Positions 1,142-15,555 of a stretch of 54,002 nt of DNA are shown here, in pieces. Location: positions 1 through 54,002 of the IMG/VR virus record IMGVR_UViG_3300012117_000002. One strand, 5' to 3'. Each line of letters opens with the position of its first letter. Positions within the stretch are counted from its first letter, which is position 1. Under the pieces are notes generated by a model that saw nothing but the letters and a program-made list of their open reading frames with translations, was not told where the DNA came from and searched no databases. The position numbers and the translations under genes were made by a program. Source of the stretch: a virus.

Positions 1142-1766
1142 AGTCACGGTTTCCTCCAATCACATTGCCCAAATCATCCATCTCGTCCCACAAATAGCGG
1201 CCTTTCCCACTGTTTCGCCACTGTCCCATGCCCCTCAGTTCTCCGTAATCAAGCCACTCCCTCACGGCATTGATATGTGCGTCACACAGGCACGAAATTG
1301 TAAAATCAATATAGGCACCCGCCGGAATGGTCTCGCTGTTTGCTAAGGCAATCCGTTCGCCCTGCGCTGTCTGCCCTCTCAACGGACGCTGGCAGTTTCC
1401 GATTTCTCCGACAAAAACAATTGGTATCATCCGCTCTTTTACGAAAATCAACCCATCAATTTCCTTTTTGTACGCTTTGATTTTCGACGAAGCTGAATTG
1501 GGCACCTTCCGTAGGCAGCCGCAGGCGTCCTTGAAAAATCCTTTCACCTGATAATCCCACATGATGGGATGTCCCTCTTTGTTGCGCGGGAAGATGGTCA
1601 TTGATTTTTCAATCACTTCATCAACTCCGACCGCTGCGACTTCTTCGGCCCGTGTTGGTGCGTCAGGTGCGTTGGATGCGATAAATGTGCTGTGAATCTC
1701 CGGATCACTGCTTGCCGTTCCTAAAATTTCCTCCGCAAATGTTACTCTTACTTTTAATTCCTTCAT
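1125..1766 (-). CDS. hypothetical early protein (213 aa) with RAMP-like motifs; function unknown
   Basis: ATG at 1766 is preceded by GAGGAGA. The longer track ORF (to 1883) runs into the repeat tract. Motifs are GHPIMWDYQVKGFFKDA and a C-terminal glycine-rich loop GMGQWRNSGKGRY. Confidence 0.55.
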   Translation of the reverse strand: MKELKVRVTFAEEILGTASSDPEIHSTFIASNAPDAPTRAEEVAAVGVDEVIEKSMTIFPRNKEGHPIMWDYQVKGFFKDACGCLRKVPNSASSKIKAYKKEIDGLIFVKERMIPIVFVGEIGNCQRPLRGQTAQGERIALANSETIPAGAYIDFTISCLCDAHINAVREWLDYGELRGMGQWRNSGKGRYLWDEMDDLGNVIGGNRDFEARK

Positions 1767-1815
1767 TTCTGATCTCCTCTTCTTTGTTGATATTTTAGTT
1801 TTTGAATCCTGTGCT

Positions 1816-2500
1816 GTGCCTTTGCGCTGCTGCACTGTGCATGGCCGTTCCTTTGCTGTGACCTGCCTGGCCTGGCTGTGCAATTCCTCGGCTATTCAAG
1901 ACTATCCACAACCACGCCCAGCGATGCTCTGCCTATACCCTGCTACCCACAGCCTCGCCACTCCTTTGCAACACTTTGCCATGCTCCGCCGTGCCCTTGC
2001 CATACTCCGCCATGTTATCCTGCGCTATGCCTTTGCAACGCGCTGCGTTTCCTTTACAATGCCATCCCTCGCCCTGCCTTGCTCTGCCGTTGCCGTGCAA
2101 GTCGTCGCAATTCCTTCGCTGCTCATCACCATGCCGAGCTACTCCCTTGCTATGCCGTGCCCCGCTGATCAGCGCCATTGCCCTGCCTAGCCATGCCTCG
2201 CTACTCCTTTGCCAATCGGCGGTTAGCACTGCCTTTGCCATTCGTAGTCCCGCCTTGCTCTGCCAACCATCGCTTTGCTTTGCCATTGCATCTCATTGCG
2301 TTGCCATTCCTTTGCTATGCCCAACTCAGCCCTTCGATGCCAATCCTTTGCTATGATCAACGCTTCTGTGCCCTGCCATCCCTTTGCTTGGCGATACCAC
2401 GCTTCGCTCTGCCGTCGCCCGGCCGTGCATTGCCATTCCTTTGCAAATCACCGTCTTGCCCTCCGGCATCCGGCAAATCCAAGCCGGTGCGCTCGTAAAA
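1816..2500 (-). repeat. degenerate G/A-rich (on transcribed strand) repeat tract with no RBS-supported ORF; candidate structured or sponge ncRNA
   Basis: CCTTTGC (GCAAAGG on minus) occurs exactly at 1819, 1850, 1963, 2030, 2206, 2232, 2309, 2345, 2381 and 2438. Three copies are spaced exactly 36 bp apart. Eight mutually overlapping track ORFs in five frames reflect the composition skew. Confidence 0.8.
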
Positions 2501-2647
2501 ATACTTCCGTGATATCCGTCCGGCCACAATGTAAAATCCTTTCGCTGTCAATTCTTCATTGAACTGCTTAATGATCTTGTAAGCCGTGTTTCTTGACACA
2601 TTCATCAACTCTGCGACCTCTGTCGCCCGCATGATTGGTGCTGGCAT
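2357..2647 (-). CDS. excisionase-family/MerR-like HTH DNA-binding protein
   Basis: The N-terminal sequence ATEVAELMNVSRNTAYKIIKQF...GRISRKYFYERTGL is typical of excisionase-type HTH proteins. The last ~40 codons run into the repeat tract and look low-complexity. Confidence 0.7.
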   Translation of the reverse strand: MPAPIMRATEVAELMNVSRNTAYKIIKQFNEELTAKGFYIVAGRISRKYFYERTGLDLPDAGGQDGDLQRNGNARPGDGRAKRGIAKQRDGRAQKR

Positions 2648-2659
2648 AATGTCACCTCC

Positions 2660-2818
2660 TTATCCGACTTTTTCATCACTTGCGATGGTATGTAGATTGA
2701 ATATAGTGGATATTGTCGTAAACAACATCTGCTTCTCTTTAGGGGACAATTCATCCGTTCCATTCAAGATTTCTTCAATCTGATCAAGGCGCTCTTTCAA
2801 CTTTTTGGATTTCTTCAC
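2660..2818 (-). CDS. possible 52-aa protein (GTG start)
   Basis: GTG at 2818. The ORF ends with TAA at 2660-2662, inside the RBS of the next gene, and fills the 2647-2846 gap. Confidence 0.35.
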   Translation of the reverse strand: MKKSKKLKERLDQIEEILNGTDELSPKEKQMLFTTISTIFNLHTIASDEKVG

Positions 2819-2845
2819 TTTCTCACCCCGCTTTCCGTTTGTTTT

Positions 2846-3595
2846 TTAGGCAATAAACTTGTTGATAAAATATTGCTGGCCGTATCCTGTTACCTTGGTT
2901 GTCTTGCTAATAGTTGTATGCCCATCGGAATGGGTGATTGCAGTTTCCTTAACTTCGAAAAGTTTCATCTCCATACTGCGTTGCGTGGGGGCATTGTAGT
3001 CAGTTCCCTTCCGACGGATCAGATAGCCATTATTTCTTAAATATTCAAATAACCGCTTCTCGCCGGTATCTACACCGTTTTGTTTTAGGATTTTCGCCAG
3101 TTCGCCAATCAAGATCGATGTCTTGCTTGTGGCTACCGCATCGGCAAATAATGCTTTGGGCTTCATTTCGCCAATTAGTTTGTCTTTGCCGGCAATAATG
3201 TTTTGAGCGACAACAAGCGCATTTGCTACAATCTGTTCTGGTGTCAAGTTTTCCTGATTTGCAATATACCCACCATTATTTCTAATTGATGGCAGTACTT
3301 CGCTCGTCACCCAATGCTTGAATCGTTTCGCCGACTCTAGTTTGCTGCTAAGAATAAGGGCATACATTCCGGACTCGTTTATAATTACCGCTTTGCTTTT
3401 GTAATTCGAACCCGTACCCTGTAATAGGGTGGTGGTTTTATCATCATCATCTACGTGCTGACTTATTGCGTTTTCTGTTTTCGCATATCCCAATGCTTTT
3501 GCGATGTCCCTTCCCACAAAATATGTTTCGTTATTCAGTTGTACTGTTCGTATTTGCCCGAACTCTTCGTTGCTAAATATCTGCAATTCCTTCAT
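2846..3595 (-). CDS. phage antirepressor (Bro-N N-terminal domain plus KilAC/ANT-type C-terminal domain)
   Basis: The sequence MKELQIFSNEEFGQIRTV...FVGRDIAKALGY...INESGMYALILSS...AKRFKHWVTSEVLPSIR is the Bro-N signature. It is the first gene of the early operon. Confidence 0.85.
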   Translation of the reverse strand: MKELQIFSNEEFGQIRTVQLNNETYFVGRDIAKALGYAKTENAISQHVDDDDKTTTLLQGTGSNYKSKAVIINESGMYALILSSKLESAKRFKHWVTSEVLPSIRNNGGYIANQENLTPEQIVANALVVAQNIIAGKDKLIGEMKPKALFADAVATSKTSILIGELAKILKQNGVDTGEKRLFEYLRNNGYLIRRKGTDYNAPTQRSMEMKLFEVKETAITHSDGHTTISKTTKVTGYGQQYFINKFIA

Positions 3596-3638
3596 TAACT
3601 ACCTCACTTTCTTTATCAATATCTTGTCCGCTATAGAC

Positions 3639-3667
3639 ATTATATCACCCATGTTGGTCTGTGTCAA
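3639..3667 (-). promoter_or_regulatory. early (lytic) promoter with consensus sigma-A elements
   Basis: The minus strand reads TTGACA (3667-3662), a 17-nt spacer, then TATAAT (3644-3639). The antirepressor RBS lies about 40 nt downstream. Confidence 0.65.
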
Positions 3668-3690
3668 ACATTATTTTTAAAATATTGTTG

Positions 3691-3719
3691 TTTACAGACA
3701 TTCAATTTTGTGTTATTAT
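3691..3719 (+). promoter_or_regulatory. repressor/integrase promoter, divergent from the early promoter
   Basis: TTTACA (3691-3696), 17-nt spacer, TATTAT (3714-3719), with TGT just upstream (extended -10). AAGGAGG and ATG 3739 follow. Confidence 0.55.
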
Positions 3720-3738
3720 ATTATTAAGGAGGAATGCT

Positions 3739-4140
3739 ATGGTAAATAGGATAAAAAAATTGAGAAATGAAAATGATATGACGCAGGAAGAATTCTCTAA
3801 ACGAATCAACATAAGTCGTTCAAACCTTGCAGGTATAGAGACAGGAAAAGTCGGAATCACGGATAGAATCATAAACGATATCTGCCGAGAATTCAATATA
3901 AACGACATTTGGTTGCGGACCGGCAAGGGCAATATGAAAAAAGATCTTTCCATAGAAGAAGAAACATATGGACGATTCGGGAAGATAATGGAAGTGGGAA
4001 GTCCCATAAAGAAAAACATGGCTACAATGCTATTAAAGATAGTAGAAACACTTCCAGACGAACAGTGGGAAAGCATATATGAGGAATTTAAGGCCTGCAT
4101 CGACAGGGTAGAAAGGGCAGAAAAAGAGAGCGAAGACTAA
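3739..4140 (+). CDS. CI-like XRE-family HTH repressor
   Basis: ATG 3739 follows AAGGAGG. The HTH is LRNENDMTQEEFSKRINISRSNLAGIETGK. The gene is divergent from the antirepressor and co-oriented with int. Confidence 0.8.
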   Translation: MVNRIKKLRNENDMTQEEFSKRINISRSNLAGIETGKVGITDRIINDICREFNINDIWLRTGKGNMKKDLSIEEETYGRFGKIMEVGSPIKKNMATMLLKIVETLPDEQWESIYEEFKACIDRVERAEKESED

Positions 4141-4408
4141 TCCTCGCTCTCTAAAACACTCCTTATTAAACTAATGAGACTTTTCAGGAATTTTGCGCTA
4201 TGTATTTTGTCAATCAATTCATGCAGTTCGTTTTTGAGACTATCCACGTATACACACCCCTTTCACTGTCAGCAAGCCAGATATTCATTACAGATTTGCC
4301 GATGTGTATATTATAACTGCACGCCAACATCATGTCAACAGGAAAATAGAACACAGGTTCGACTTATTTCAAAGTTATTCGACAAATAGAAAAGGAGGAA
4401 TTGAAATC

Positions 4409-5476
4409 ATGCCAGCATACAAAGATGAGGCCAGAAAGACATGGTATTGCAAATTTTCATACACTGATTGGACGGGAAAACAGCGGCAGAAGTTAAAACG
4501 CGGTTTCCCGTCGAAGAAAGAAGCCGCTGCTTGGGAGCGTAATTTTTTAGAACGGCAGCAAGGAAGCCCTGACATGACCTTTGGGACCCTCTGTGCGCTC
4601 TATGTGGAGGATATCACCTTACACATTAGGGCATCCACGGTCAAGGGCAAGACAGGCCGTATTAAGAATCATATACTGCCATACTTCGAGGATAAGCGTG
4701 CAAACGAAATAACAACCGCCGATATTCGGAAATGGCAGGGAATTATTATAACAAAGGAATTCAGTCCAACATACCAGCGGCTGATAAACAGGGATCTTAA
4801 TTCTATCTTTAATTTTGCGAAAAAGTATTACAAATTGAACGCTGATCCATGTGCGCCAATAAAGGCTATAGGAAAATCAAAGGCGGGGCGCATGGATTTT
4901 TGGACACAATCCGAATTTATTACTTTTCTCGGATGTGTTGAAAAACCGGAAACTAGATTGGCTTTTCAAATTCTTTTTTACACAGGTGTGCGTTTTGGTG
5001 AGCTGATGGCTATTAATCCGGCTACGGATATTGACTTGAAAAACAAAACCCTGACCGTATCAAAGTCCCACTATCGAGACCACGGCGAAGACATAATTAC
5101 ACCCCCAAAAACCGAAAATAGCAATCGCGTTGTTGCGCTGCCACCTTTTTTAACTGATTTAATTGAAGATTATATGAGCCATATCTATGATATTCAGTCC
5201 AGAAACAGGTTATTTTTGTTCTCGCGCTCGAAATTAAGAAGAGCAATGAATAGAAGCTGCCAGCAATCCGGTATCAAGCAAATTCGGGTACATGACATTA
5301 GGCATAGCCACGCTTCCATGTTGATAGAGATGGGGTTTTCTCCCATATTGATAGCCGAAAGAATTGGCGATACCGTCGAGATGGTTAACAACACCTACGG
5401 CCACCTGTATCCCAACAAGCATAAGGATGTGGCTGATGCATTGGCTCAATCGTATCAAAACTGTATCACGGGCTGA
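4409..5476 (+). CDS. int: tyrosine recombinase (phage integrase) with N-terminal arm-type DNA-binding domain
   Basis: ATG 4409 follows AAAGGAGG. The N-terminus is KTWYCKFSYTDWTGKQRQKLKRGF. Catalytic motifs are GVRFGEL, HDIRHSHASMLI and NTYGHLY. Confidence 0.93.
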   Translation: MPAYKDEARKTWYCKFSYTDWTGKQRQKLKRGFPSKKEAAAWERNFLERQQGSPDMTFGTLCALYVEDITLHIRASTVKGKTGRIKNHILPYFEDKRANEITTADIRKWQGIIITKEFSPTYQRLINRDLNSIFNFAKKYYKLNADPCAPIKAIGKSKAGRMDFWTQSEFITFLGCVEKPETRLAFQILFYTGVRFGELMAINPATDIDLKNKTLTVSKSHYRDHGEDIITPPKTENSNRVVALPPFLTDLIEDYMSHIYDIQSRNRLFLFSRSKLRRAMNRSCQQSGIKQIRVHDIRHSHASMLIEMGFSPILIAERIGDTVEMVNNTYGHLYPNKHKDVADALAQSYQNCITG

Positions 5477-5729
5477 AATAAACTGGCAAAAATGACGTAA
5501 AATCGTTGATTTCAAGCATTTTTTGAATGACTCTACCTGAATTGATAATTTTATATTCTTACATAATTTACATATTTTTGGTATATATTTTAACGTTTGG
5601 TATCAGGAAAAATGATTTTCACAGGATGTGCTAAAATAAAACGTATCATTTTCGTATCATCCAAGGCGAAAAAGAAGCAAGGGCATCAGCCCTAATGCGC
5701 CATAATGCTAAACAAATGTAAAAGTTTAA
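5477..5729. other. probable attP region (AT-rich, non-coding, next to int)
   Basis: About 250 bp without an ORF between int and a bidirectional terminator. Short direct repeats are present (cgtatcat twice at ~5641-5665). The core site was not identifiable. Confidence 0.4.
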
Positions 5730-5755
5730 CCCCGGCTTGCCACCGGGGCTTTTTT
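5730..5755. terminator. hairpin terminator between int and the convergent cargo operon
   Basis: CCCCGG-cttgcca-CCGGGG followed by CTTTTTT on the plus strand. It directly abuts the stop of the 5754-6302 gene. Confidence 0.7.
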
Positions 5756-6302
5756 AATATTTGTATCCCATCTTTTCTTCTTTTTTCTCTGCCGCATCGT
5801 GATTGTTATAATTTGTGCTCTCATAGATCATAAGATCGTGTAGGGCAGTACCCTGCGCTTTCATATCGGCATATCTCTTAATCTTACGGTTCAAGTCCAC
5901 GATAGCGCACTTGATACATCCGGCGCGCTCGTACAGCGGACAGGCCAAATCTCTAAGGCATAACGGTGCCACAAACATGTTCGCGCTCTCATGTAGCTTC
6001 CAGTACATATCCCACAATCCATTCCGGTATTCCGTTAAGAACGTTTCAACGCTATTAACATTAGGAAACGACGCGTTCGCCTTCTGGGGATAAATCTCAA
6101 CCTCGAACAAGTCAAAGGCTTCTGATTGTAGGTATTTTCGGATATTTTCGTCCTTGGTACCTTCCATGCGCGCTTCCCGCTTTTTCCCTTGGATGCCCAT
6201 GGACAGGGCTTTGACAAATGCTGTGTTTTCAAATTCCTCAAACGCATACAGATAATTCACAGTATTTTGAATCTGTCTTATGCAGTCGGCTTTATTGACC
6301 AT
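5754..6302 (-). CDS. hypothetical protein (182 aa), last gene of the attP-proximal operon
   Basis: ATG 6302 follows AGGAGG. Cys motifs are CPLYERAGCIKC. No family recognised. Confidence 0.6.
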   Translation of the reverse strand: MVNKADCIRQIQNTVNYLYAFEEFENTAFVKALSMGIQGKKREARMEGTKDENIRKYLQSEAFDLFEVEIYPQKANASFPNVNSVETFLTEYRNGLWDMYWKLHESANMFVAPLCLRDLACPLYERAGCIKCAIVDLNRKIKRYADMKAQGTALHDLMIYESTNYNNHDAAEKKEEKMGYKY

Positions 6303-6313
6303 TTTCCTACCTC

Positions 6314-6514
6314 CTAAAAATAAGATGTCCGCGGATTCCCGTCCATCATCTCTGTATGCATGCCGTCGCGCATTTCTTTCCACTTCTCAACATGCTTTCT
6401 GTTTTCCAACAAAACATGCAGATCGTATTCTTCTTTCGTGAGTTTCTTGGATTCAGACTTGATCAGGCCGTCAATAGCCATGTCAAGCTTTTCGATATAT
6501 TTTTGCACATGCAT
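6314..6514 (-). CDS. hypothetical small helical protein
   Basis: 66 aa, with AGGAGG 5 nt upstream. Confidence 0.55.
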   Translation of the reverse strand: MHVQKYIEKLDMAIDGLIKSESKKLTKEEYDLHVLLENRKHVEKWKEMRDGMHTEMMDGNPRTSYF

Positions 6515-6523
6515 GGCAGCCTC

Positions 6524-6940
6524 CTAACAAACTTTTGTAACGACGGTTTCGAAGTTACTAAAGACAGCTCCGACACCCGTGTCGACAAATGTAAGCGTGG
6601 TTATCGGATTTCCGCACGGGCCGCAATCCGGCTTAACTCTGACAAGGGTTTCAAAGTCCAGATTAACGATCGTGGTGACTGCGCCACTGGTTGCCGTGGC
6701 TTCTGCTCCGGGATACAGAACCCCATCGACAAATAGCTGTACTGTGATGTCTCCAGCTACGCCGGATTCTGCTGCATCGGCATTGAAATGTACCATGTAG
6801 ATTCCCGGCTTGTTAAGATCGATTCCGGCAGAACCGGCAGCGTGAGTAACGGTACACCCGGTGATGATTCGGTTGTTGTTAAATGCAAGGGCTTCCCCTG
6901 TGACAACGGTTTGGTCTGAATTTGTATATGTGTCTAACAT
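6524..6940 (-). CDS. BclA C-terminal-domain-like (C1q/TNF-like jelly roll) protein
   Basis: 138 aa with AAGGAGG. The pattern AFNNN...KPGIYMVHFNADAA...ITVQLFVDGVLYPGAEATA...NFETVVTKVC resembles the exosporium BclA C-terminal domain. Confidence 0.55.
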   Translation of the reverse strand: MLDTYTNSDQTVVTGEALAFNNNRIITGCTVTHAAGSAGIDLNKPGIYMVHFNADAAESGVAGDITVQLFVDGVLYPGAEATATSGAVTTIVNLDFETLVRVKPDCGPCGNPITTLTFVDTGVGAVFSNFETVVTKVC

Positions 6941-7033
6941 TTTAAAATCCTCCTTAAAATAAAAATAAGTGTGGGCTATCCCACACGGCGTTTAAATGGT
7001 GCGGATATGCACTCTATTGCTATATTCTTTTGT

Positions 7034-7273
7034 TCATGGCTCACTAATCTTTTCTCGGATATCCCGCAAAACCTCAAGCGCTTGCTTTCCGGTTTGGGCG
7101 CTCTGCCTGTTGTTTTCGACATTCTGCTGGCTCAGCCGGACATTTTGAGCGTTCAGCGCAATGTTTCTATAATTCAATCCAATAATCTCTACCGTCAGAG
7201 CAAGGATGGCTATATTGACAAGCAGGTTAGACCATTCGGCACCGTTATTCCTTCGGTTTTGCAGGTTGTGCAT
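7034..7273 (-). CDS. small membrane-anchored protein
   Basis: 79 aa with one hydrophobic helix (WSNLLVNIAILALTVEIIGL). The RBS is weak. It overlaps the upstream small ORF by 29 nt. Confidence 0.45.
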   Translation of the reverse strand: MHNLQNRRNNGAEWSNLLVNIAILALTVEIIGLNYRNIALNAQNVRLSQQNVENNRQSAQTGKQALEVLRDIREKISEP

Positions 7274-7403
7274 TTCCCATTTTGTTCAGCGTGTCAATTC
7301 CCTGTCCGGCGAGTTGCTGGAGTGCGACGCCAAACTTATCTCTTGCGGCCGGGTTCCCAAGCAGGTAGCCAGCACCAAGGAAAATCAATCCTGTAACATT
7401 CAT
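7245..7403 (-). CDS. possible 52-aa membrane protein
   Basis: ATG 7403 follows GAGGTGA. Translation is MNVTGLIFLGAGYLLGNPAARDKF... It is below the track cutoff. Confidence 0.4.
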   Translation of the reverse strand: MNVTGLIFLGAGYLLGNPAARDKFGVALQQLAGQGIDTLNKMGNAQPAKPKE

Positions 7404-7482
7404 GCCATCACCTCTATTCGCAGATCATCCAGCAGGGCAACAACCGTCACCCCGCCAGTCGATCTAATAACTTGATTATCTG

Positions 7483-8163
7483 TTACGCAACGCCATACTC
7501 GTATCCGTCGCACTTGCCGCGTCTCGGATAGTTGCATTCATGGTTGCGCGGTGGATAATCGTAGATGGTCGGCTCGCCGCCACAAGCATAGAACGGAGGC
7601 CGTTTCGGGACTTCACATTCCAGCATGCCGATGCGCTGGTTGGTGCAGTTGATAGCACCCAGCACCTGGTCGATCTTGCGCTCGGTGAACGCCTCGTTAT
7701 TCATAGTCTGAATCTTTGTATTCTGCTCTGCGATCTTATCGCGCAGATCCTGAATGTAATTCTGCTCAATCAGTGTGCGGGTCTTTTCGCCTTCACAATG
7801 AACCTCTTTCTGTGTTGCACATGCGGTTTTCCACACATCTTGATCGGTTTTCCAGATGTCCTTCTCAACGCAACATAACTTGTCTTTCAAGTGAGATTCC
7901 TGCTCCCAGTTACTTTCGTCTTTGTAGGTAGGTTGTACACAAGGACCGCAGCCGCAGCCATTGCCGAAGCCGTAGCCCGGATAGCCGTGATCATAGCCGC
8001 CGTGTCCGTGTCCATCCTTGAAAAGACACCACAAGACAACAACTACAAGCAGAATGAGTATTCCGCTGCCGCCGAAGCCGCCGCCGTAACCAACACCACC
8101 ATAGCCAATGCTGGGATATCCAACGTTGTCTACCATTTCATTGCCGGAACTATTAAATGCCAT
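7483..8163 (-). CDS. Gly/Tyr-rich single-pass membrane protein with Cys-rich coiled-coil ectodomain (YjcZ-like N-terminus)
   Basis: AAAGGAG RBS. The N-terminus is GYGGVGYGGGFGGSGILILLVVVVLWCLF, followed by HGHGGYDHGYPGYGFGNGCGCGPC and a Cys-rich coiled coil. Confidence 0.6.
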   Translation of the reverse strand: MAFNSSGNEMVDNVGYPSIGYGGVGYGGGFGGSGILILLVVVVLWCLFKDGHGHGGYDHGYPGYGFGNGCGCGPCVQPTYKDESNWEQESHLKDKLCCVEKDIWKTDQDVWKTACATQKEVHCEGEKTRTLIEQNYIQDLRDKIAEQNTKIQTMNNEAFTERKIDQVLGAINCTNQRIGMLECEVPKRPPFYACGGEPTIYDYPPRNHECNYPRRGKCDGYEYGVA

Positions 8164-8217
8164 AGTATTTCTCCTTTCTGGTTTTGTTTTATATCAAAGG
8201 CACAAGGCCATTAATAT

Positions 8218-8595
8218 CTATACTTTTGGATACCGCGAACTGTCGAATCTCGGTTTTGCATCCCTGCCGGATGGAGCCGCGTTACTTTTGCCCGGACCGT
8301 TTGCATTGACCGCATTTCCCAGATTGTCAACCATCGATTTGAGGTTGCTTGTGTCCAGTCCTAATTTGGACGAATATTTTCCGTATTTGTTGAACATGCT
8401 ATTTATAAATTCCTTGTCAACTCCCATGCTTCGAAGTGTATCGATTCCGGAATTTGGATTATTGATCAGGCCCGGAAGCACCTTTTTCCCTTGTGCCAGA
8501 GCCTCTTTTACCTGCTGCGGGCTTCTGCCCGTTATCTGCGCTATTTTGCTCGTCTGACTTTCCGCGAGATTCAGCGCCATATCTATCATCGACAT
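8218..8595 (-). CDS. hypothetical protein (125 aa)
   Basis: AAAGGAG lies 9 nt upstream of ATG 8595. The start lies 137 nt inside the preceding ORF, in another frame. Confidence 0.5.
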   Translation of the reverse strand: MSMIDMALNLAESQTSKIAQITGRSPQQVKEALAQGKKVLPGLINNPNSGIDTLRSMGVDKEFINSMFNKYGKYSSKLGLDTSNLKSMVDNLGNAVNANGPGKSNAAPSGRDAKPRFDSSRYPKV

Positions 8596-8941
8596 TCGAT
8601 CCAGCTCCTTTCAGTTCTTTTATTTCTGCATTCAATGCGCCTATAGCTTCCAGCAACTGCTGGTTGATTCTGGCCTGCTCCATGGCCTGCTCCATGGCAA
8701 TTTCTTCGGCGCTTTTTTGCGGAGTAATCACACCCAGCTCAACGAGTTTGTCGTAATAATTTTTAATGATTTCTTCTTGATCCTCGATTAACTTCAAAAG
8801 CTCGGTTTCCCGCTCGTTATCAATTCCGATCTTGTCTCTCGCTCCCCGGTAATTAGCGTTGTAGATATCACCGTTTTCGCTTATTAATCCCGTAAATACA
8901 TTTTCGGCGCTATACCTTGTGTAACTTTCTTCATATGCCAT
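8459..8941 (-). CDS. hypothetical coiled-coil protein (160 aa)
   Basis: The ATG overlaps the upstream stop (ATGGCATATGA). The C-terminal ~46 codons are low-complexity and overlap the next gene. Confidence 0.55.
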   Translation of the reverse strand: MAYEESYTRYSAENVFTGLISENGDIYNANYRGARDKIGIDNERETELLKLIEDQEEIIKNYYDKLVELGVITPQKSAEEIAMEQAMEQARINQQLLEAIGALNAEIKELKGAGSNVDDRYGAESRGKSDEQNSADNGQKPAAGKRGSGTREKGASGPDQ

Positions 8942-9101
8942 ACACTTCTCCTCGTGGCTTCAATGACATTTCGTTCATTAACCCGACAATGCCAATATTT
9001 TCAATACAGTCGATGGACAAATAAAAATCATATATTTCCCCTGCTTCTTCTGCCGTATATCCAACTTTCGTCATTCGGTCAATAAACTGCTTTTCGCTCA
9101 T
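8931..9101 (-). CDS. possible 56-aa protein
   Basis: ATGA start/stop overlap with the upstream gene, and its stop overlaps the downstream start. It fills the 8941-9098 gap. Confidence 0.4.
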   Translation of the reverse strand: MSEKQFIDRMTKVGYTAEEAGEIYDFYLSIDCIENIGIVGLMNEMSLKPRGEVYGI

Positions 9102-9343
9102 ATAATTTTCCGTACCTCCGCAATAAAGTCATCCAGCGGCACGCCGTAGCTTCTGGCAACGCTCTCGCCACACTGAACACCGTTTTGCAGCATTAATTTG
9201 AATCGTTCCCGCTGTGCGTCGCCCATCCCGTTCACAAAGAGTCTAGCGCAGTTTTCGGCAGTGACTGAATGACTGTCGGTTTCTTTCTTTTTGCCGGCCG
9301 GTGCGTTCTTGGGTGCCGGCGGCTGAATCAAGTTACTTACCAT
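9098..9343 (-). CDS. hypothetical protein (81 aa)
   Basis: GGGAGG lies 7 nt upstream of ATG 9343. The track ORF begins at TTG 9349. Confidence 0.55.
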   Translation of the reverse strand: MVSNLIQPPAPKNAPAGKKKETDSHSVTAENCARLFVNGMGDAQRERFKLMLQNGVQCGESVARSYGVPLDDFIAEVRKII

Positions 9344-9515
9344 CTCCAAACCTCCCGTAGCTCATTGACAAAACAATGCACGCAGCTTCAATAAAATCCT
9401 TGCTGAAATGCTTCTTTTCCTTGGCTTCTTTGATTGCGTCAAGCGTCATTTCCGTTAAATCTGTTAAGGCTTCGTCTAATTTGTCAATCACGCTGAAACC
9501 TCCTGTCACGTTCAT
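9333..9515 (-). CDS. hypothetical small protein, first gene of the operon (start uncertain)
   Basis: ATG 9515 lacks an SD. An internal GTG at 9491 is preceded by GGAGG plus 7 nt and is the more likely start. Confidence 0.45.
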   Translation of the reverse strand: MNVTGGFSVIDKLDEALTDLTEMTLDAIKEAKEKKHFSKDFIEAACIVLSMSYGRFGDGK

Positions 9516-9606
9516 TTCTTATATGGTAATTTTAAGGGATTTCGGGGAAAGAAAAGCATTTGAATAATGCTTATAAAACTTAGGAAAGGTGTTGAAAAAA
9601 TACAAT

Positions 9607-9642
9607 AAAAAAAGAGACCTCTTATAATCAAAGAAGTCTCTT
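9607..9642 (-). terminator. rho-independent terminator ending the 11568-9653 operon
   Basis: The minus strand has an AAGAGAC...GTCTCTT stem (extended by 4 further pairs) followed by a T-run (9611-9607). Confidence 0.75.
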
Positions 9643-9652
9643 GTGCCTGAAT

Positions 9653-9943
9653 CTATCTCGTTTTTCTCCTGCCAACGCTTGCCGGATACAGCACAACGGG
9701 CAGGCCGTCCGGCTGATTCTTAAAAAAGGCAGAATTTCTATAGTCCAGGGTATACCCATTGTCAAAAGCAAACTTGGCGCAGTCGGGATACTTTTCAATG
9801 TGTGCCGTTACTCTACCGGCAAAAAGAATATATCCGTTTTCGTTGTAATCAGCGCTCTTTAATTCGTCAATGCTTTCCGAAATACAATCCAGAATGTTTT
9901 TTAACACCAGATTTTCCAGTTCTAATTTTTCAGTCCTTGTCAT
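9653..9943 (-). CDS. hypothetical protein (96 aa)
   Basis: ORF with AGAGGAA upstream. It is the last gene before the terminator. Confidence 0.55.
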   Translation of the reverse strand: MTRTEKLELENLVLKNILDCISESIDELKSADYNENGYILFAGRVTAHIEKYPDCAKFAFDNGYTLDYRNSAFFKNQPDGLPVVLYPASVGRRKTR

Positions 9944-9988
9944 AACGTTCCTCTCTGCCCCGAATACCGCTGGAGCTGGTATGTGCTT

Positions 9989-10192
9989 TTATCCAAAAAT
10001 AATCAGCGTCAACATGAATGCCATAACCATTCCCATCATAATCAGCGCAAACAGATAGTCGCTGCTAAAATGCAATTCCCGCTCGTACCGCTGTAATCTC
10101 GATGCCTTGAGGAATGCGTCCTTGTCTTTTTCTATATGTTTAATCGTCTTGCAAAAATCCTTGAATACCTCTCGTTCGCTCTTGTCTTTCAT
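9989..10192 (-). CDS. small tail-anchored membrane protein
   Basis: 67 aa with C-terminal helix YLFALIMMGMVMAFMLTLIIFG. ATGA overlap with the upstream ORF. Confidence 0.55.
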   Translation of the reverse strand: MKDKSEREVFKDFCKTIKHIEKDKDAFLKASRLQRYERELHFSSDYLFALIMMGMVMAFMLTLIIFG

Positions 10193-10320
10193 AATATCTT
10201 ACCGCCTTTCTGTGTGTATACACTTTTCACGAGAGTATATACGCACCTCACAAAAGTATCACTGCCAATTCTTTCTAAGTAATCCACGATTGATTTAATA
10301 TACGTTTCGCGTTCGGTCAT
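10189..10320 (-). CDS. 43-aa microprotein, paralog of 10317-10442
   Basis: Translation is MTERETYIKSIVDYLERIGSDTFVRCVYTLVKSVYTQKGGKIL. ATGA couplings on both sides. Confidence 0.45.
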   Translation of the reverse strand: MTERETYIKSIVDYLERIGSDTFVRCVYTLVKSVYTQKGGKIL

Positions 10321-10442
10321 AATTTTTTACCTCCTCCGCACATGCTTCTCACAAAGTAGTACGCGCACCTTGTCAGTGTCACATTATTGGTTCTCTCTAA
10401 TATTTCCATGATTAACTTGATATACTCCTTATGTTCTGCCAT
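10317..10442 (-). CDS. 41-aa microprotein, paralog of 10189-10320
   Basis: Translation is MAEHKEYIKLIMEILERTNNVTLTRCAYYFVRSMCGGGKKL. GGGAGA RBS and ATGA coupling. Confidence 0.45.
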   Translation of the reverse strand: MAEHKEYIKLIMEILERTNNVTLTRCAYYFVRSMCGGGKKL

Positions 10443-10457
10443 GATTTATATCTCCCT

Positions 10458-11267
10458 TCATCTCTGCACGCCGTGTATAGCCTGATGTTTTTTTACTATT
10501 CCTTCAAAAATCTGCCGCAATTGCTTATCTTTGCTGATAACATCCATCTTTGTCAGAGTTTTTGCTTCGGTTTTAGTAGCTCCTCGCCTCACCATATCTT
10601 TTCTGCGACGGATTAAGCGGCTGCCCAGCAGGATGCCGGAGCTTTCCTCCAGCTCTTTGTATATCATTCCCCGGAACTTGACCGGGCTTAAATGATATGT
10701 CGCTACCATCGCATTGATTGCGCCGTTCATATCAGCGCTCCAGTGGTCAATGCTCGGGTTTGCAAACACTTTTAGTGTGGTTTCCAGCTTCGTCGCTGAT
10801 TCCTGCGCTGTCTGCTCAATGACGGCAAGGCGCCGATCTTGGATTTCCAACAGTTGCCCCTGGGCTTCTAATTTCCGCTCAAGCTCAACGGTGTTCTGTG
10901 CCATTTGGAGAATCATTTCGGCTTGCGTAAGCTGAGGGAGGGTGTAGCCTCCTTGTTTGCGGATAGATGGCAGCACTTCGGACGTAACCCAACGTTTGAA
11001 TTTCTTGGCGCTTGGAAGCTCGCTCATAATGATTAGGGCATACATGCCAGATTCGTTGATAAGAGTCGTTTGCTGTTCGCCTCCTCTTGAAGGGATACCT
11101 CGTTTCAGGGTATCCTCTGCATCCACATGCCGGATTACTGCGTCATAGGGCTTTGCATACCCCAGAGCGGTCGCGATATCCCTACCAACGAACCAGCCTT
11201 CTCCATCAATATCCACTGTCCTGACTTCTCCGAATTCTGGATTGTTAAAAATCTGTAATTCATTCAT
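10458..11267 (-). CDS. second Bro-N-domain antirepressor-like protein with a different C-terminal domain
   Basis: The sequence MNELQIFNNPEFGEVRTV...FVGRDIATALGY...INESGMYALIIMS...AKKFKRWVTSEVLPSIR closely parallels 2846-3595 over roughly the first 110 aa. Confidence 0.8.
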   Translation of the reverse strand: MNELQIFNNPEFGEVRTVDIDGEGWFVGRDIATALGYAKPYDAVIRHVDAEDTLKRGIPSRGGEQQTTLINESGMYALIIMSELPSAKKFKRWVTSEVLPSIRKQGGYTLPQLTQAEMILQMAQNTVELERKLEAQGQLLEIQDRRLAVIEQTAQESATKLETTLKVFANPSIDHWSADMNGAINAMVATYHLSPVKFRGMIYKELEESSGILLGSRLIRRRKDMVRRGATKTEAKTLTKMDVISKDKQLRQIFEGIVKKHQAIHGVQR

Positions 11268-11385
11268 AATAAAAAATCTCCTCTCAAATTTCGTGCTTGA
11301 AGGAGATCTCTGCTCATGCTATAATATTCATGAGAGAAATCTCGCCCAGAACACTTGCCAAACTTTCCACGGTGGAGCGAGTGTT

Positions 11386-11568
11386 CTATTTTTTTGCCCA
11401 TTTTAAAACTTCTTCTTTTTCAATCCTCCAATCTCTTCCTAATTTGAATCCTTGCAATTCACCAGATTTTAATGCACGTTTAACAGTCATCTCGCTAATT
11501 TGCAAAAATTCTGCTAATTGTTTTGGCGTTATAATTTCTGGAAGATTTTCTAAACCCAAACATATCAC
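11386..11568 (-). CDS. excisionase-family HTH DNA-binding protein (start uncertain)
   Basis: ITPKQLAEFLQISEMTVKRALKSGELQGFKLGRDWRI. The SD GGAGG fits TTG 11559 better than GTG 11568. Confidence 0.65.
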   Translation of the reverse strand: MICLGLENLPEIITPKQLAEFLQISEMTVKRALKSGELQGFKLGRDWRIEKEEVLKWAKK

Positions 11569-11665
11569 CTCCTGTAATTTATTATAACTAACTATAACAT
11601 ACTATTACAAACATGTCAATATCTTTTTGGGAATGATTTTCGAGTTGCAATTTTCCACAATCTAC

Positions 11666-11702
11666 CATATAATAATTTCATCAAAAGAGAAAGGGGGATA
11701 TA
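11666..11702 (+). promoter_or_regulatory. promoter/leader cassette (TATAAT plus RBS), duplicated at 12753-12787
   Basis: catataataatttcatcaaaagagaaagggggatata here versus catataataatctcatcaaaagaaaaggggatata at the second site. Confidence 0.5.
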
Positions 11703-11707
11703 AACAT

Positions 11708-12679
11708 TTGAAAATAATTAAAGCCTTTCTAATAATTAGTATTTTATCGATTTTATTTGCCGGGATTATGCAGATTTCATTCTTGTCAGAAAACGCAAAG
11801 TTTTTACTATTTATATCTATAATTATTCTGTGGATGATAAAAAAGAATTTTCTTAAAATTAGAATTTTATTTTTAAAAATCGGAATGAAAATTCAAAAGA
11901 CAAAAATGTTTTTTTCGAAGATAGGACTGCGTTTAATTAATGTGAAATTTCGTTTTAGCAACATAAGGCTAGGGAAATCGGATGCAACCCCTAGATATTC
12001 AAGTATGTCCGATTCTGCTCCCGTAGTTGCACCGTTAGACTCACTGACAGACGGCTACGCATTCGAGGCTTACATAGCCGATCTACTCTTGAAAAATGGC
12101 TATAGCAAGGCATCGCCAACACAAAAATCCGGAGATTTTGGTGCTGATGTAATAGCTGAAAAAGATGGTGTGAGATATGCTATTCAATGCAAGTTATATA
12201 GTCAACCGGTAGGAAATAAGGCTGTAGGGGAAATTCTTGCTGGAATGCAATATTACAACTGTCACGTGGGGGTTGTGGCGACAAATAACACTTTCACAAA
12301 AGCTGCAATCGAAATAGCCCAAAAATCGAACGTATTGCTGTGGGATAGGAGCGTGCTATTAAAAATGGCTCCAATACCAAGTCCAGAGCATTTCAATTCA
12401 TATCAATCGTCTTACCGCCTTAGACACAATCTCCAGTCAGAGGAATGTAGTGATAATGAATTGTATTTACATGCGGTGGAATGTGCCTTGGAAAAAGGAA
12501 AGGTATCTATTGGATCACTGCAAAGGGAATTGGGTATAAAATTTAATTGTGCATTTGCCATTGTGGAAAAAATGGAGAAAAATGGAATCATTGATTGTTC
12601 CGACGAATCAACTTACCGTCACACATTAATATCAAACGAAAAATGGATAGAGATAAAGTCCGGGCAAAACATTTCATAA
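11708..12679 (+). CDS. membrane-anchored Mrr-type (PD-(D/E)xK) restriction endonuclease-like protein with C-terminal FtsK-gamma-like winged helix
   Basis: TTG 11708 follows AAGGGGGA. There are two N-terminal hydrophobic helices. The Mrr_cat pattern is FEAYIADLLLKNGY...GDFGADVIAE...YAIQCKLY. The C-terminus is VSIGSLQRELGIKFNCAFAIVEKMEKNGII. Confidence 0.7.
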   Translation: MKIIKAFLIISILSILFAGIMQISFLSENAKFLLFISIIILWMIKKNFLKIRILFLKIGMKIQKTKMFFSKIGLRLINVKFRFSNIRLGKSDATPRYSSMSDSAPVVAPLDSLTDGYAFEAYIADLLLKNGYSKASPTQKSGDFGADVIAEKDGVRYAIQCKLYSQPVGNKAVGEILAGMQYYNCHVGVVATNNTFTKAAIEIAQKSNVLLWDRSVLLKMAPIPSPEHFNSYQSSYRLRHNLQSEECSDNELYLHAVECALEKGKVSIGSLQRELGIKFNCAFAIVEKMEKNGIIDCSDESTYRHTLISNEKWIEIKSGQNIS

Positions 12680-12752
12680 TGTAAAAGCCAACACTAATTT
12701 GCCGGCTTTTATTTCAAAGTTATTTTTTAAATTGCACTTTCCCGCTATTTAT

Positions 12753-12787
12753 CATATAATAATCTCATCAAAAGAAAAGGGGATATA
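12753..12787 (+). promoter_or_regulatory. second copy of the promoter/leader cassette
   Basis: It matches 11666-11702 with few mismatches and ends at the RBS of the lipoprotein gene. Confidence 0.5.
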
Positions 12788-12791
12788 GATC

Positions 12792-13436
12792 ATGAAGAGA
12801 GTGGGAATTATTTTCGCATTGGCATTGATCGCCGGAACTACTACGGCCTGCGGGGGAAGTTCTCTGACCGCAAGCACGGCAGCGCAAACGACGACCGCAG
12901 AAACGGAAGTAGAAACAGAAATTGAGGCAGAAATCGAAACAGTGGCAGAGACTACTGCGAAGCCGGAGACTACCGCGGGGAAAGATGAAGAAACATTAAA
13001 AAATGAACAACTGGCCATTATAACTAGCGTCAGCATTGTCGAACAGAGTACAGAGTATAAATCTCTCTACCCGGACATGGTTCAGTGGATACTTGAAAAC
13101 AAATCAGGAAATGTTATTAAAAATTATACGGTTTCTGTTTTGGCCTATGATGAAAATGGATATCCGGTCAAAGTTGAGGGGCAATACGACTATAAACCCG
13201 GATTTGAAAAATCAGTGCTCGCAGAAGCGGTAAATGTTCAGCCGGACACAACTCACGGAGATGATTATGGCTATGGCCTGGGTACGAATCATGGAATCGC
13301 TTATGCAATTGTTCTTGTGAAAGAATTGGAATTTTATGATTCCGATACTTGGAAGAACCCCTATTATGATATTTGGATTAAAAAGTATAAAGAAAAACCA
13401 ATTTCGCTCGATGATTTGAATGCTATGTATAATTAG
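12792..13436 (+). CDS. lipoprotein (candidate superinfection-exclusion or surface protein)
   Basis: Signal peptide with lipobox MKRVGIIFALALIAGTTTAC, a T/E/A-rich linker and a globular C-terminal domain. Confidence 0.75.
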   Translation: MKRVGIIFALALIAGTTTACGGSSLTASTAAQTTTAETEVETEIEAEIETVAETTAKPETTAGKDEETLKNEQLAIITSVSIVEQSTEYKSLYPDMVQWILENKSGNVIKNYTVSVLAYDENGYPVKVEGQYDYKPGFEKSVLAEAVNVQPDTTHGDDYGYGLGTNHGIAYAIVLVKELEFYDSDTWKNPYYDIWIKKYKEKPISLDDLNAMYN

Positions 13437-13448
13437 CACGTCTTTTTT

Positions 13449-13476
13449 AAAGCCAGTGATTAAACTCACTGGCTTT
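13449..13476. terminator. 11-bp stem-loop between convergent genes
   Basis: AAAGCCAGTGA-ttaaac-TCACTGGCTTT. The U-tract is only partial. Confidence 0.5.
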
Positions 13477-13494
13477 AAATTGAGTCTTATGTTT

Positions 13495-14139
13495 CTATCG
13501 TCTGTCTAATGACAGGGATAGTTCTGGCGTTAATGTCTGATATGTTTTCTGATATTCGACTGTTGCTAAATCCTCCAACACATAAACATCCTCGCCAGTG
13601 ATATGCACATTTGTCCAATATTCCCCTTCATAATATACAATTGTTCCATCCGATAGACCTTTTAAGAGTTTGGATAATTCAATCGATCCGCACCGATACC
13701 ACGTTCCCCCATAAGGCGGCGCGCCAACGGATGAAGCGGTTTCTGCTGGACTGGCAGTATGGGCTTTCCAATAATACCCGCCATAATAGACCACGGTTCC
13801 GTTTGCCTTTCCTTTATTTATCGCATCCTGCCCGTCAGCGTTGCATATTTCCCATTTAACGCCCATTTCCGAATATAATGGCGGCGGTGTGTTCGGGTCT
13901 TTCCATACGCCGTTGCTTCCTATTTGATATTCACCAATAGTGGTATCATGCGCCATTTTTCCATCCTCGTAAAAATAAAACCATCCCATCGTAAAAAGCA
14001 CCCATCCCGTGAGCAATTCGCCGTCTGCATTGCGGTAATACGAATCAGAACCAATGTCCTCCCATCCGGCAAACGCATTCATAACTGGTGTTGATAATAA
14101 AACAAATGCCAAAATAAAAATAGTTCCTAATTTCTTCAT
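13495..14139 (-). CDS. secreted protein with cell-wall-binding (CW_binding-like) repeats and two carbohydrate-binding-like repeats
   Basis: ATG 14139 lies 9 nt after AAGGAGA. There is a signal peptide. Repeats are GW..YYRNADGELLTGW and WFYFYEDGKM, and GTVVYYGGYYWKAHT / GTIVYYEGEYWTNVH. Confidence 0.65.
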   Translation of the reverse strand: MKKLGTIFILAFVLLSTPVMNAFAGWEDIGSDSYYRNADGELLTGWVLFTMGWFYFYEDGKMAHDTTIGEYQIGSNGVWKDPNTPPPLYSEMGVKWEICNADGQDAINKGKANGTVVYYGGYYWKAHTASPAETASSVGAPPYGGTWYRCGSIELSKLLKGLSDGTIVYYEGEYWTNVHITGEDVYVLEDLATVEYQKTYQTLTPELSLSLDRR

Positions 14140-14205
14140 ACCTCGCATTCTCCTTTTCTTTTTTTCTAATTATAACAGATTGCGGAAAAATTGTCGATAG
14201 GTGGG

Positions 14206-14230
14206 AGACGGGAAAGCGATCCCGTCTTTT
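14206..14230 (+). terminator. plus-strand hairpin terminator insulating the downstream island
   Basis: GACGGGA-aagcga-TCCCGTC followed by TTTTTC. Confidence 0.55.
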
Positions 14231-14250
14231 TCTTCTTTCTCAATGCAAAA

Positions 14251-14306: not shown

Positions 14307-14355
14307 AGTATTAAGTTAAGGAGCACAAAACACACAATAAAAGGAGAATAAAACT

Positions 14356-14538: not shown

Positions 14539-14539
14539 T

Positions 14540-14974: not shown

Positions 14975-14981
14975 AAGTGAA

Positions 14982-15546: not shown

Positions 15547-15555
15547 GGAGGAAAC

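Follow-up and report, generated by a model that had tools for sequence, protein, structure and literature searches.

What does a block of eleven mostly small genes do for a temperate phage, or for its host, when it is laid out against the integrase gene at one end of the phage genome? The question is raised by the record IMGVR_UViG_3300012117_000002 of IMG/VR (hereafter the window, i.e., the whole stretch of 54,002 nucleotides (nt) that was analysed), in which eleven minus-strand genes (g1 to g11, 9491-5754; Table 1) lie between two hairpin terminators. A preliminary description, made from the letters of the sequence, had read them as a lysogenic-conversion operon that might add to or remodel the spore surface of a clostridial host. 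The eleven conserved genes are indeed present. The reading that we favour is that they represent an accessory cassette, conserved and mobile among the phages of gut Clostridia, self-contained and not belonging to the virion, the products of which would form a membrane assembly probably linked to lysis or to the cell envelope. This reading is tentative, with a probability of about 0.38.

The comparison with other phages revealed that the relative order g4-g5-g6-g7-g8-g9 is maintained in 16 fetched loci, corresponding to about nine phages. Since this order is conserved in the 16 related loci, with 35-95% amino-acid identity, the genes of the cassette can be considered real rather than chance open reading frames (ORFs). 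The core g4-g9 together with the ferritin-like g11 recurs in about 15 phage lineages, including siphoviruses, a myovirus, temperate phages, and Clostridium perfringens phages lacking an integrase. The slot following g9 is always filled by a protein of about 160-235 amino acids (aa), either g11 or a member of the families referred to as fam20 and fam10; these form a single superfamily, since hhalign joins fam20 to fam10 (90%) and the g11 hidden Markov model (HMM) matches intermediates with E-values from 1e-9 to 3e-15. The same HMM also matches the positional equivalents in locus L098 and in the C. perfringens phages. At the DNA level, the region 5500-9700 found no match in the 50,697 phage records that were also used for the tblastn and protein searches. 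In a 5.8-billion-protein collection, the families of g6, g9, and g11 include 51, 27, and 42 members, respectively, all of them metagenomic, and a full HMM search with g6 retrieved 233 clusters of the representative library. Ten distant relatives of g6, checked through their clusters, likewise all came from metagenomes.

In every case, the cassette is co-oriented with the late genes, and in all the related loci it is preceded by a terminator. Its usual position is directly after the endolysin gene, behind two small genes for transmembrane and coiled-coil proteins and a gene encoding a 70-160-aa helix-turn-helix (HTH) protein of the LuxR/sigma-region-4 type; as an example, the 70-aa HTH neighbour in L001 matches Pfam GerE with 28.6 bits, above the gathering cut-off of 23.5. 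In three AT-rich phages, the cassette is located between the tail genes and the holin/endolysin genes (one of these loci, L014, had no match among known phages when compared by similarity), and the arrangement of the window, with g11 facing int, is also found in L104, with a different integrase. As to the hosts, the L002 prophage abuts pst genes; the encoded PstC shares 82% identity with its counterpart in Scatolibacter rhodanostii (Oscillospiraceae) and 70-77% with the PstC proteins of many gut Lachnospiraceae. The preliminary description had suggested a survey of whether such operons sit at prophage ends in sporeformers only: the known or inferred hosts of the full cassette are Clostridia, the positions are varied, and homologues of g6 occur in Bacteroides phages (see below).

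The genes are linked only partly in the way that had been proposed. Of the chain of ATGA/TAATG overlaps, one ATGA junction is present (g2/g3), and overlaps of 11 (g1/g2), 11 (g3/g4), 29 (g7/g8), and 137 nt (g4/g5, out of frame) do exist, but the other five junctions are gaps of 54 (g5/g6), 79 (g6/g7), 93 (g8/g9), 9 (g9/g10), and 11 nt (g10/g11). Three products (those of g1, g3, and g7) are shorter than 60 aa, in agreement with the preliminary description. According to the position of the ribosome-binding sites (RBS) and to the automatic gene calls of the source contig (ENA ERZ27241861 k141_45076), which were used for comparison, g1 and g2 most likely start at GTG 9491 and ATG 9343, respectively. 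The same gene caller skipped g5 and g8, yet both are conserved at the protein level throughout the relatives. The case of g5 is peculiar in that it begins within g4, overprinting its final 137 nt (8459-8595) in the +1 frame; a long out-of-frame overlap of this kind (83-140 nt) is found in most of the relatives of the window type and in L098, is absent in L014, and is reduced to 8 nt in the versions of the C. perfringens and Dulem phages. A programmed frameshift leading from g4 into g5 was considered and ruled out: g5 lies in the +1 frame with its own RBS and ATG and a conserved N-terminus, on the basis of which it is regarded as an overlapping gene, and the tail of g4 is not conserved.

Only the domain encoded by g9 belongs to a described family, all the PHROG matches of the cassette being of unknown function. 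The g9 protein matches Pfam BclA_C (PF18573) with an E-value of 6.6e-8 and 32.9 bits, under the gathering cut-off of 38, and some members of its family carry a precomputed PF18573 match. When the family profile was compared with the PDB, it retrieved, over nearly the full length, the C-terminal domain (CTD) of F-BclA (9H38, identified as such via PMC12357932) with an E-value of 2.6e-4, and BclA with E-values from 2e-3 to 8e-3. The AlphaFold2 (AF2) model of the monomer, whose predicted local distance difference test (pLDDT) score is 92.4, is a ten-stranded jelly roll superimposable on the BclA CTD. In the Foldseek search, 9H38 ranked first (TM-score 0.80-0.82, root-mean-square deviation 1.9 Å), ahead of BclA (0.70-0.74) and ExsFA/BxpB (0.66-0.74); these exosporium proteins were followed by cyanophage tail proteins and by proteins of the TNF/C1q type, with EDA-A1 at 0.72-0.77. 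The Pfam E-value, the PDB profile search, the AF2 model, and Foldseek therefore agree on the BclA CTD/C1q fold that the preliminary description had recognised in this product, and the C1q/TNF-type jelly roll is common to g9, to the CTDs of BclA and F-BclA (PF18573; PDB 1WCK and 9H38), and to ExsFA/BxpB, with a significant similarity at the level of sequence profiles.

The resemblance stops at the head. A BclA-type exosporium glycoprotein possesses a leader and a collagen-like stalk, whereas g9 is the head alone, encoded by a phage: its 138 residues correspond to the globular domain only, without an N-terminal exosporium-targeting leader and without collagen-like GXX repeats. Moreover, g9 is closer to other phage proteins than to BclA, its nearest neighbours in the viral structure library being standalone proteins of 130-145 aa from human-gut phages (TM-score 0.88-0.95). 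Two of these had already been automatically named 'BclA protein', and standalone 'BclA' heads are common among gut phages.

The product of g6 was the other pillar of the spore proposal. Along its sequence it shows a Gly/Tyr-rich N-terminal tail, one transmembrane helix (KD17 hydrophobicity 2.8 at residues 32-48), a His/Gly/Tyr stretch, a CxxC motif, a Cys-rich coiled coil, and a FPRRG..C tail, with a total of 13 Cys, 31 Gly, and 14 Tyr. All the peptide strings quoted in the preliminary description do occur in g9 and g6, and the Gly/Tyr-rich segment beside a single hydrophobic helix in the N-terminus of g6 presumably represents a compositional resemblance to YjcZ. Nevertheless, the YjcZ-type motif that had been read there did not find any confirmation: no match to YjcZ/TIGR01732 was obtained for 28 family members (g6 and 27 relatives) at E-values up to 1, nor for six divergent homologues or isolated N-terminal segments at E-values up to 10. 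The members of the YjcZ family are tiny sporulation membrane proteins, while g6 has 226 aa, a large Cys-rich coiled coil, and a superfamily reaching Bacteroides phages. Similarly, the supposed likeness to Cys-rich coat or exosporium morphogenetic proteins (CotY/ExsY, CdeC, CdeM, CsxA) had to be abandoned, neither g6 nor its family profile having any match in Pfam, NCBIfam, or the PDB, although this negative is a weak one, as some of these families may lack models. A scan of the GTDB species representatives with the g6 alignment did not disclose any relative; it used two peptide patterns of the window type, which divergent forms would escape.

The distribution of g6 extends well beyond the window-type cassettes. 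A human faecal contig (MT838536) carries, in this order, a lysin, an XhlA-like protein, a sigma-region-4-like regulator, a g4-like gene, an overlapping g5-like gene, and then g6-like, g9-like (47% identity), g8-like, and ferritin-like genes, and bridges the window-type cassette and a block found in the C. perfringens phages vB_CpeS-17DYC, HMD-PC1, PMQ04, CPD1, XP41-N3, and CPQ4. The latter block encodes proteins of 146, 77, 201 (g6-like), 119 (beta-rich), 65, 132, and 175 aa (ferritin-like). These C. perfringens phages were isolated as plaque formers and belong to the phiCP39O group, which comes from screens for virulent phages and whose members are listed as lytic; vB_CpeS-17DYC has no annotated integrase, and none is present in the stretches read of PMQ04 and HMD-PC1. 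In Dulem virus 35, from the gut of a lemur, the block is located between the minor and the major capsid genes. Searches of the 50,697 records with the window g6 and g9 and with the g6-like and ferritin-like proteins of the C. perfringens phages did not return any phage of Bacillus, Staphylococcus, Streptococcus, or Lactococcus.

The g6-like protein of the C. perfringens phages, in turn, matches proteins of 300 aa encoded by crAss-like phages and by a Bacteroides uniformis phage; these proteins consist of a Gly/Trp-rich segment, a transmembrane helix, a Gly-rich segment, a CCC motif, a coiled coil, and a GCGCGC tail. The window g6 family and this set are joined by hhalign with 96.5% probability and an E-value of 8e-10. 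The homologues include the 'spike protein/glycoprotein' of the crAss-like phage cr53_1 (gp66) and the 'outer capsid protein/viral fiber' of the Bacteroides phage C3_41T2LP, which maintain the same order of segments as g6 and have a beta-rich protein (about 146-180 aa) and a coiled-coil protein encoded behind them; they differ from g6 in being about 80 aa longer, in belonging to phages of Gram-negative hosts, and in having no detectable partner of the BclA or ferritin-like type. No experimental basis was found for these annotations, and the literature search on the Bacteroides phage was empty. In cr53_1, the g6 homologue comes directly after genes annotated as holin, LysB-like, and sigma-like, and precedes a beta-rich 146-aa protein and a coiled-coil 187-aa protein. 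Many in-frame stops under translation table 11 fall inside the annotated genes around it (1688-6272 of that locus); they fit the stop-codon recoding known for some crAss-like phages. No homology could be detected between the beta-rich proteins and g9, or between the coiled-coil proteins of the C. perfringens and crAss-like phages and g4.

As for g11, its AF2 model is a four-helix bundle with a long B-C loop, that is, a ferritin-like fold; the top 50 Foldseek matches are almost all ferritins, bacterioferritins, and Dps proteins, with TM-scores of 0.51-0.66 and E-values of only about 1e-2. The invariant residues of the family alignment do not include the ExxH pairs of helices B and D that would act as di-iron ligands. 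The first genes of the cassette are less widespread: g1 has homologues only in L010 and L012 (60-63% identity), and small proteins with the pattern GY..E.A..IYD(Y/F) occupy the position of g3 in L001, L010, L011, and L012. The C-terminal half of g2 looks HTH-like by eye but has no Pfam match, and its interpretation as a GerE-type HTH was rejected, as hhalign did not reveal any similarity to the GerE-type regulators of the relatives; none of g1-g3 reaches Pfam GerE above the gathering threshold. On the other hand, g4 was found in 10 of 10 distinct loci; in the window it contains an exact 12-nt tandem repeat (8671-8698, TGGCCTGCTCCA x2.3 on the plus strand), corresponding to the AMEQAMEQA segment of its coiled coil. 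Apart from the transmembrane proteins g6 and g8, and weakly g7, no product shows an N-terminal hydrophobic leader. Searches of all the products and many relatives against Pfam, NCBIfam, and PHROGs retrieved BclA_C for g9, GerE-type HTH domains in the relatives, and PHROGs of unknown function, and nothing else; g4, g5, g7, g8, and g10 match no family, no PHROG of known function, and no PDB entry, and the PDB profile searches with g4, g5, g6, and g11 gave nothing meaningful. Ten products (all but g9) were also compared with PADLOC, with no match at E < 0.001 and a marginal one for g4 (E 0.005).

The signals flanking the genes are consistent with a self-contained transcriptional unit. Of the two bounding terminators indicated by the preliminary description, the upstream one (9607-9642) is strong; the downstream hairpin is real, but the good T-run lies on the plus strand, on the integrase side, and it is therefore better called a shared terminator of convergent units. 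Likewise, the gene set is that of a single operon, but a terminator-like hairpin with a T-run (6986-6956) falls between g8 and g9; this pair of hairpins, with its T-run, is common to the window, L001, and L006 and absent in the other loci. Another hairpin directly follows the stop codon of g5 in nearly every related locus (spacers of L001-L016, L097, and L101, folded as single sequences), with a stem sequence that differs each time, and may be an mRNA-stabilising or processing element; RNAalifold found nothing in the g5-g6 spacer, the underlying MAFFT alignment being out of register. In the window, the 3' arm of this hairpin overlaps an extended -10-like motif, TGnTATAAA.

Upstream of g1, the preliminary description saw no convincing sigma-A promoter in 9516-9606 and supposed that a sporulation sigma factor could drive the operon. 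In agreement with the former statement, a generic consensus scan did not find any full sigma-70 site, though a TAAAAT -10-like hexamer is present and aligns with TATAAT in L010 and L012; indeed, exactly one TA[TA]AAT hexamer occurs in each of six orthologous upstream regions. The latter supposition does not agree with the same six regions, where no sigma-E, -K, -F, or -G pattern was found using regular expressions of the B. subtilis type, from which the clostridial consensus may differ. The perfect inverted repeat of the window (Table 1) has a counterpart in L001 (AAGCA-TTT-TGCTT), and L010 and L012 carry instead a direct repeat, ATGCCG...(A/G)TGCCG. Judging from this comparative picture, the promoter is probably of an activator-dependent sigma-A type rather than of a sporulation type.

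Putting these elements together, the cassette would be transcribed from a sigma-A-type promoter consisting of a -10 box only and probably needing an activator, candidates for which are g1-g3 in the window and the 70-160-aa LuxR/sigma-region-4-type HTH protein in the relatives; the internal hairpins may split the unit into g1-g5, g6-g8, and g9-g11. According to the predictions, g6, g8, and perhaps g7 would be single-pass membrane proteins whose coiled-coil domains, on the basis of charge distribution, should be cytoplasmic, and g4 and g5 would be soluble, with a coiled-coil or helical structure. The g9 head, of the BclA/C1q type, stands alone and is presumably trimeric, and g11 is a ferritin-like bundle devoid of metal ligands. 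These products might come together at the host membrane, on it or along its inner face. With low confidence, we propose that they act on the envelope of the host during lysis or around that time, or else alter the envelope from the prophage, rather than build a spore layer. The occurrence of the cassette in phages of different morphotypes, with its own terminators and its own regulator, suggests that it is not a virion module, and a role in the envelope or in lysis is suggested by its nearly constant place next to the holin/endolysin genes and by the small XhlA/BhlA-like membrane proteins that accompany it. For leaderless proteins encoded near such genes, an endolysin-like release through the holin lesions is the norm.

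Several observations weigh against this reading. The membrane topology is based on charge distribution only, and expression timing, localisation, and interactions are inferred. In the window, the cassette lies 7.5 kb away from the lysis genes and is insulated from them by terminators, and in the Bacteroides phage C3_41T2LP and in the C. perfringens phages the neighbours of the block are early or replication genes and not those of lysis. The proximity to the lysin might in itself have little meaning, being the usual insertion site of morons in Firmicutes siphoviruses. None of the cassette proteins has a significant family match, save BclA_C for g9; the two small transmembrane genes that accompany the cassette (one fam8 and one fam16 member from L001 were scanned) do not match the Pfam holin or XhlA families; and beyond g6 and the ferritin-like protein no homology is detectable between the different cassette types.

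The spore proposal can now be examined in the light of the same data. It maintains that, in the Firmicutes cassettes, g9, g6, and their partners are lysogenic-conversion cargo made in sporulating cells under mother-cell expression, and that the g9 head and the Cys/Gly/Tyr-rich g6 anchor are laid onto the coat or exosporium of the developing spore, thus re-surfacing it. Such a scheme would explain why exosporium proteins (F-BclA, BclA, ExsFA/BxpB) account for all the best matches of g9 in both structure and sequence, why the products lack signal peptides, as mother-cell-assembled coat proteins do, and why g6 is so rich in Cys, Gly, and Tyr; it is also in keeping with the known or inferred hosts of the full cassette, which are Clostridia (C. 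perfringens, and an Oscillospiraceae- or Lachnospiraceae-like bacterium for L002), and with the failure of four cassette proteins to retrieve phages of Bacillus, Staphylococcus, Streptococcus, and Lactococcus. However, apart from g9 there is no YjcZ, coat, or exosporium family match, a conserved sigma-A-like -10 takes the place of the sporulation patterns, and the cassette is harboured by integrase-less phages isolated as virulent, and in other phages it is found inside late operons or next to lysis genes, and even in a head-gene cluster. The g9 head, without exosporium leader and collagen stalk, is of a type common both in phage fibres and as standalone gut-phage proteins. Since the cassette moves between many gut phages and g6 extends to crAss-like and Bacteroides phages, which infect non-sporulating hosts, a spore-coating role appears improbable; were it true, the phage, even when trapped in the spore, would change the adhesion, germination, or dispersal of the endospore. 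The absence of signal peptides and the vicinity of holin/endolysin genes and sigma-like regulators would also suit a leaderless effector freed by lysis, in which the g9 C1q/TNF-like lectin, alone or with g4, g5, or g11, acts outside the cell, for example by masking receptors on debris or by binding other bacteria or ligands of the animal host, as in the loci for holin-dependent release of toxins and bacteriocins. The similarity of g9 to TNF-family ligands, such as EDA-A1, and to phage receptor-binding heads points in this direction; nonetheless, three membrane proteins make up the conserved core, unrelated beta-rich proteins replace g9 in several lineages, and no toxin-like domain was found, so that this possibility is likewise doubtful.

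A system of superinfection exclusion or anti-phage defence, in which g6-g8 and their partners block the entry or the development of competing phages, would account for the membrane anchoring, for the moron position with its own promoter and terminators, and for the presence of the cassette in temperate phages as well as in the early region of virulent ones; a Mrr-type nuclease fused to an FtsK-gamma domain is among the neighbouring cargo. We consider it rather unlikely, because PADLOC did not recognise the ten products compared, no enzymatic or sensor domain is present, the predictions place most of the protein mass in the cytoplasm, and a set of seven to eleven structural-type proteins is unlike the known exclusion systems. 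It might also be supposed that the products are virion-associated, with g9 as a capsid decoration or fibre head, g4 as its coiled-coil shaft, and g6-g8 as ejection or membrane-insertion proteins: C1q-type heads cap many phage fibres, the block of Dulem virus 35 lies between capsid genes, and the records of the crAss homologues name them spike or fibre proteins. These labels, though, come from the annotators of the records, g9 has no attachment domain, and the same cassette, flanked by terminators and provided with its own regulator, is shared by siphoviruses whose tail modules are unrelated, by a myovirus, and by crAss-like phages, and lies outside the structural operon in the window; this explanation is accordingly very improbable.

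The window represents the whole genome of a temperate phage, assembled as a circle of about 53.9 kb, with an exact 59-nt terminal overlap (1-59 = 53944-54002). The early genes run leftward from 3595, wrapping round the end of the window, and the endolysin gene is the last of the late genes; the cassette lies at the far end, convergent with the integrase gene and separated from it by a 277-nt spacer. The presumed attP was assigned from its position, no host junction having been recovered and no tRNA having been found in the window as an att anchor. The cargo position attributed to the operon by the preliminary description is in agreement with this layout: the cassette is at the prophage end, between the late/lysis genes and att/int, and has the features of an autonomous moron, i.e., its own flanking terminators, a (predicted) promoter-like element, and a patchy distribution. 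The two small transmembrane genes adjacent to the cassette in the relatives are parted from it in the window by a mixed-strand island of 7.5 kb (9653-16976; GC 0.40 versus 0.45).

Table 1. Features of the window discussed in the text (positions on the window; aa, amino acids)
Feature	Positions	Strand	Remarks
cI-like repressor	3661-4140	rightward	
Tyrosine integrase	4409-5476	+	Pfam match
Presumed attP region	5477-5729		between int and g11
GC-rich hairpin	5730-5748		shared by the convergent cassette and integrase transcripts; -16.9 kcal/mol
g11	5754-6302	-	182 aa; ferritin-like four-helix bundle (AF2 pLDDT 80)
g10	6314-6514	-	66 aa; helical; 47% identity in L004; 66-aa gene at the same position in L103
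g9	6524-6940	-	138 aa; standalone BclA_C/C1q-TNF jelly roll
Hairpin pair	6956-7012	-	between g8 and g9; second hairpin (6986-6956) with T-run; internal terminator or attenuator
g8	7034-7273	-	79 aa; predicted single-pass membrane protein, C-terminal coiled coil; KD17 2.41; 41-84% identity
g7	7245-7403	-	52 aa; weakly hydrophobic N-terminus (KD17 1.27); in most window-type loci
g6	7483-8163	-	226 aa; predicted single-pass membrane protein
Intercistronic hairpin	8190-8217	-	between g5 and g6
g5	8218-8595	-	125 aa; helical; conserved KYPK[VLI] end
g4	8459-8941	-	160 aa; conserved N-terminal domain, coiled coil, low-complexity tail
g3	8931-9101	-	56 aa
g2	9098-9343	-	81 aa; 60-66% identity in L010 and L012
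g1	9333-9491	-	52 aa; helical; ORF extends to ATG 9515; GGAGG 7 nt before GTG 9491
TAAAAT -10-like hexamer	9529-9534	-	no recognisable -35 box
Perfect inverted repeat AAGCATT-N5-AATGCTT	9554-9572	-	candidate operator; its centre lies about 41 bp ahead of the inferred start site
Intrinsic terminator	9607-9642	-	12-bp stem, -15.2 kcal/mol, z -3.6, then U7; closes off the preceding gene (9653-9943), insulating the cassette
Bro-N protein	10458-11267		island
Mrr_cat nuclease fused to FtsK-gamma domain	11627-12679		island
DUF5780 protein	12792-13436		island
Choline-binding-repeat protein	13495-14148		island
Two small transmembrane and coiled-coil genes (fam8, fam16)	17060-17650	-	directly after endolysin; in relatives directly before the cassette
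Endolysin	17710-19122		glucosaminidase, amidase_3, and choline-binding repeats

Other genes are found at the insertion site in the relatives. In the siphovirus locus L107 (5177-8896), a 440-aa protein resembling the processive synthases of glycosyltransferase family 2, a 381-aa UDP-glucose/GDP-mannose dehydrogenase, and a 329-aa protein are placed between the GerE-type regulator and the cassette, an insert that looks like a capsule-type conversion module. In the AT-rich phages, two polytopic membrane proteins precede the cassette (L013, 7652-8870; L014, 7774-8986; L016, 5096-6332); the second of them has a weakly AgrB-like N-terminal region and an HTH-like soluble C-terminal tail, and could be a regulator tethered to the membrane that takes the place of the small soluble HTH protein. 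Elsewhere in the window, the island Bro-N protein has an antirepressor-type paralogue (2846-3595), which is the only one of the two to carry a KilAC/ANT domain. Two tandem overlapping genes (10189-10320 and 10317-10442) encode paralogous proteins of 41-43 aa (..YIK.I..(Y/I)LER....T..RC.Y..V.S...) without family match, and the region 1900-2560 is GC-rich (about 0.50), with long ORFs that overlap on the two strands and, at 2268-2308, a 21-nt tandem repeat.

The cassette shares with the phage morons inserted after the lysis genes of Firmicutes siphoviruses the location between lysis genes and attP/int, the presence of its own terminators and promoter-like element, the patchiness, and the occurrence of other cargo at the same site. 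It differs from the usual ones in its unusually large size (seven to eleven genes), in the conserved internal order, in the linked regulators, and in being found also in integrase-less phages and in late operons. We also take as comparable the neighbourhoods of XhlA/BhlA-type accessory proteins, of UviA-UviB-Bcn, and of TcdR-TcdE, where small transmembrane and coiled-coil proteins, a sigma-region-4-like regulator, and leaderless cargo lie by holin/endolysin genes; yet no match at the level of families was found to XhlA, BhlA, holins, or sigma factors of the TcdR type, and the cassette does not contain any toxin or bacteriocin domain. Hence, an accessory cassette near the lysis genes of a phage belongs to a familiar class, but this specific multi-gene system, with an anchor crossing phyla, is undescribed in the libraries and in the literature searched.

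Some consequences for the biology of these phages can be outlined. That a phage of a sporeformer encodes a BclA-like fold should not be taken as evidence for the remodelling of the spore. Since homologous blocks are present in culturable C. perfringens phages, the cassette is experimentally tractable. The g6 anchor is conserved from Clostridium phages to crAss-like phages, and the latter are among the most abundant viruses of the human gut. If the cassette is indeed linked to lysis or acts on the envelope, it would represent a previously unrecognised function common to many gut phages.

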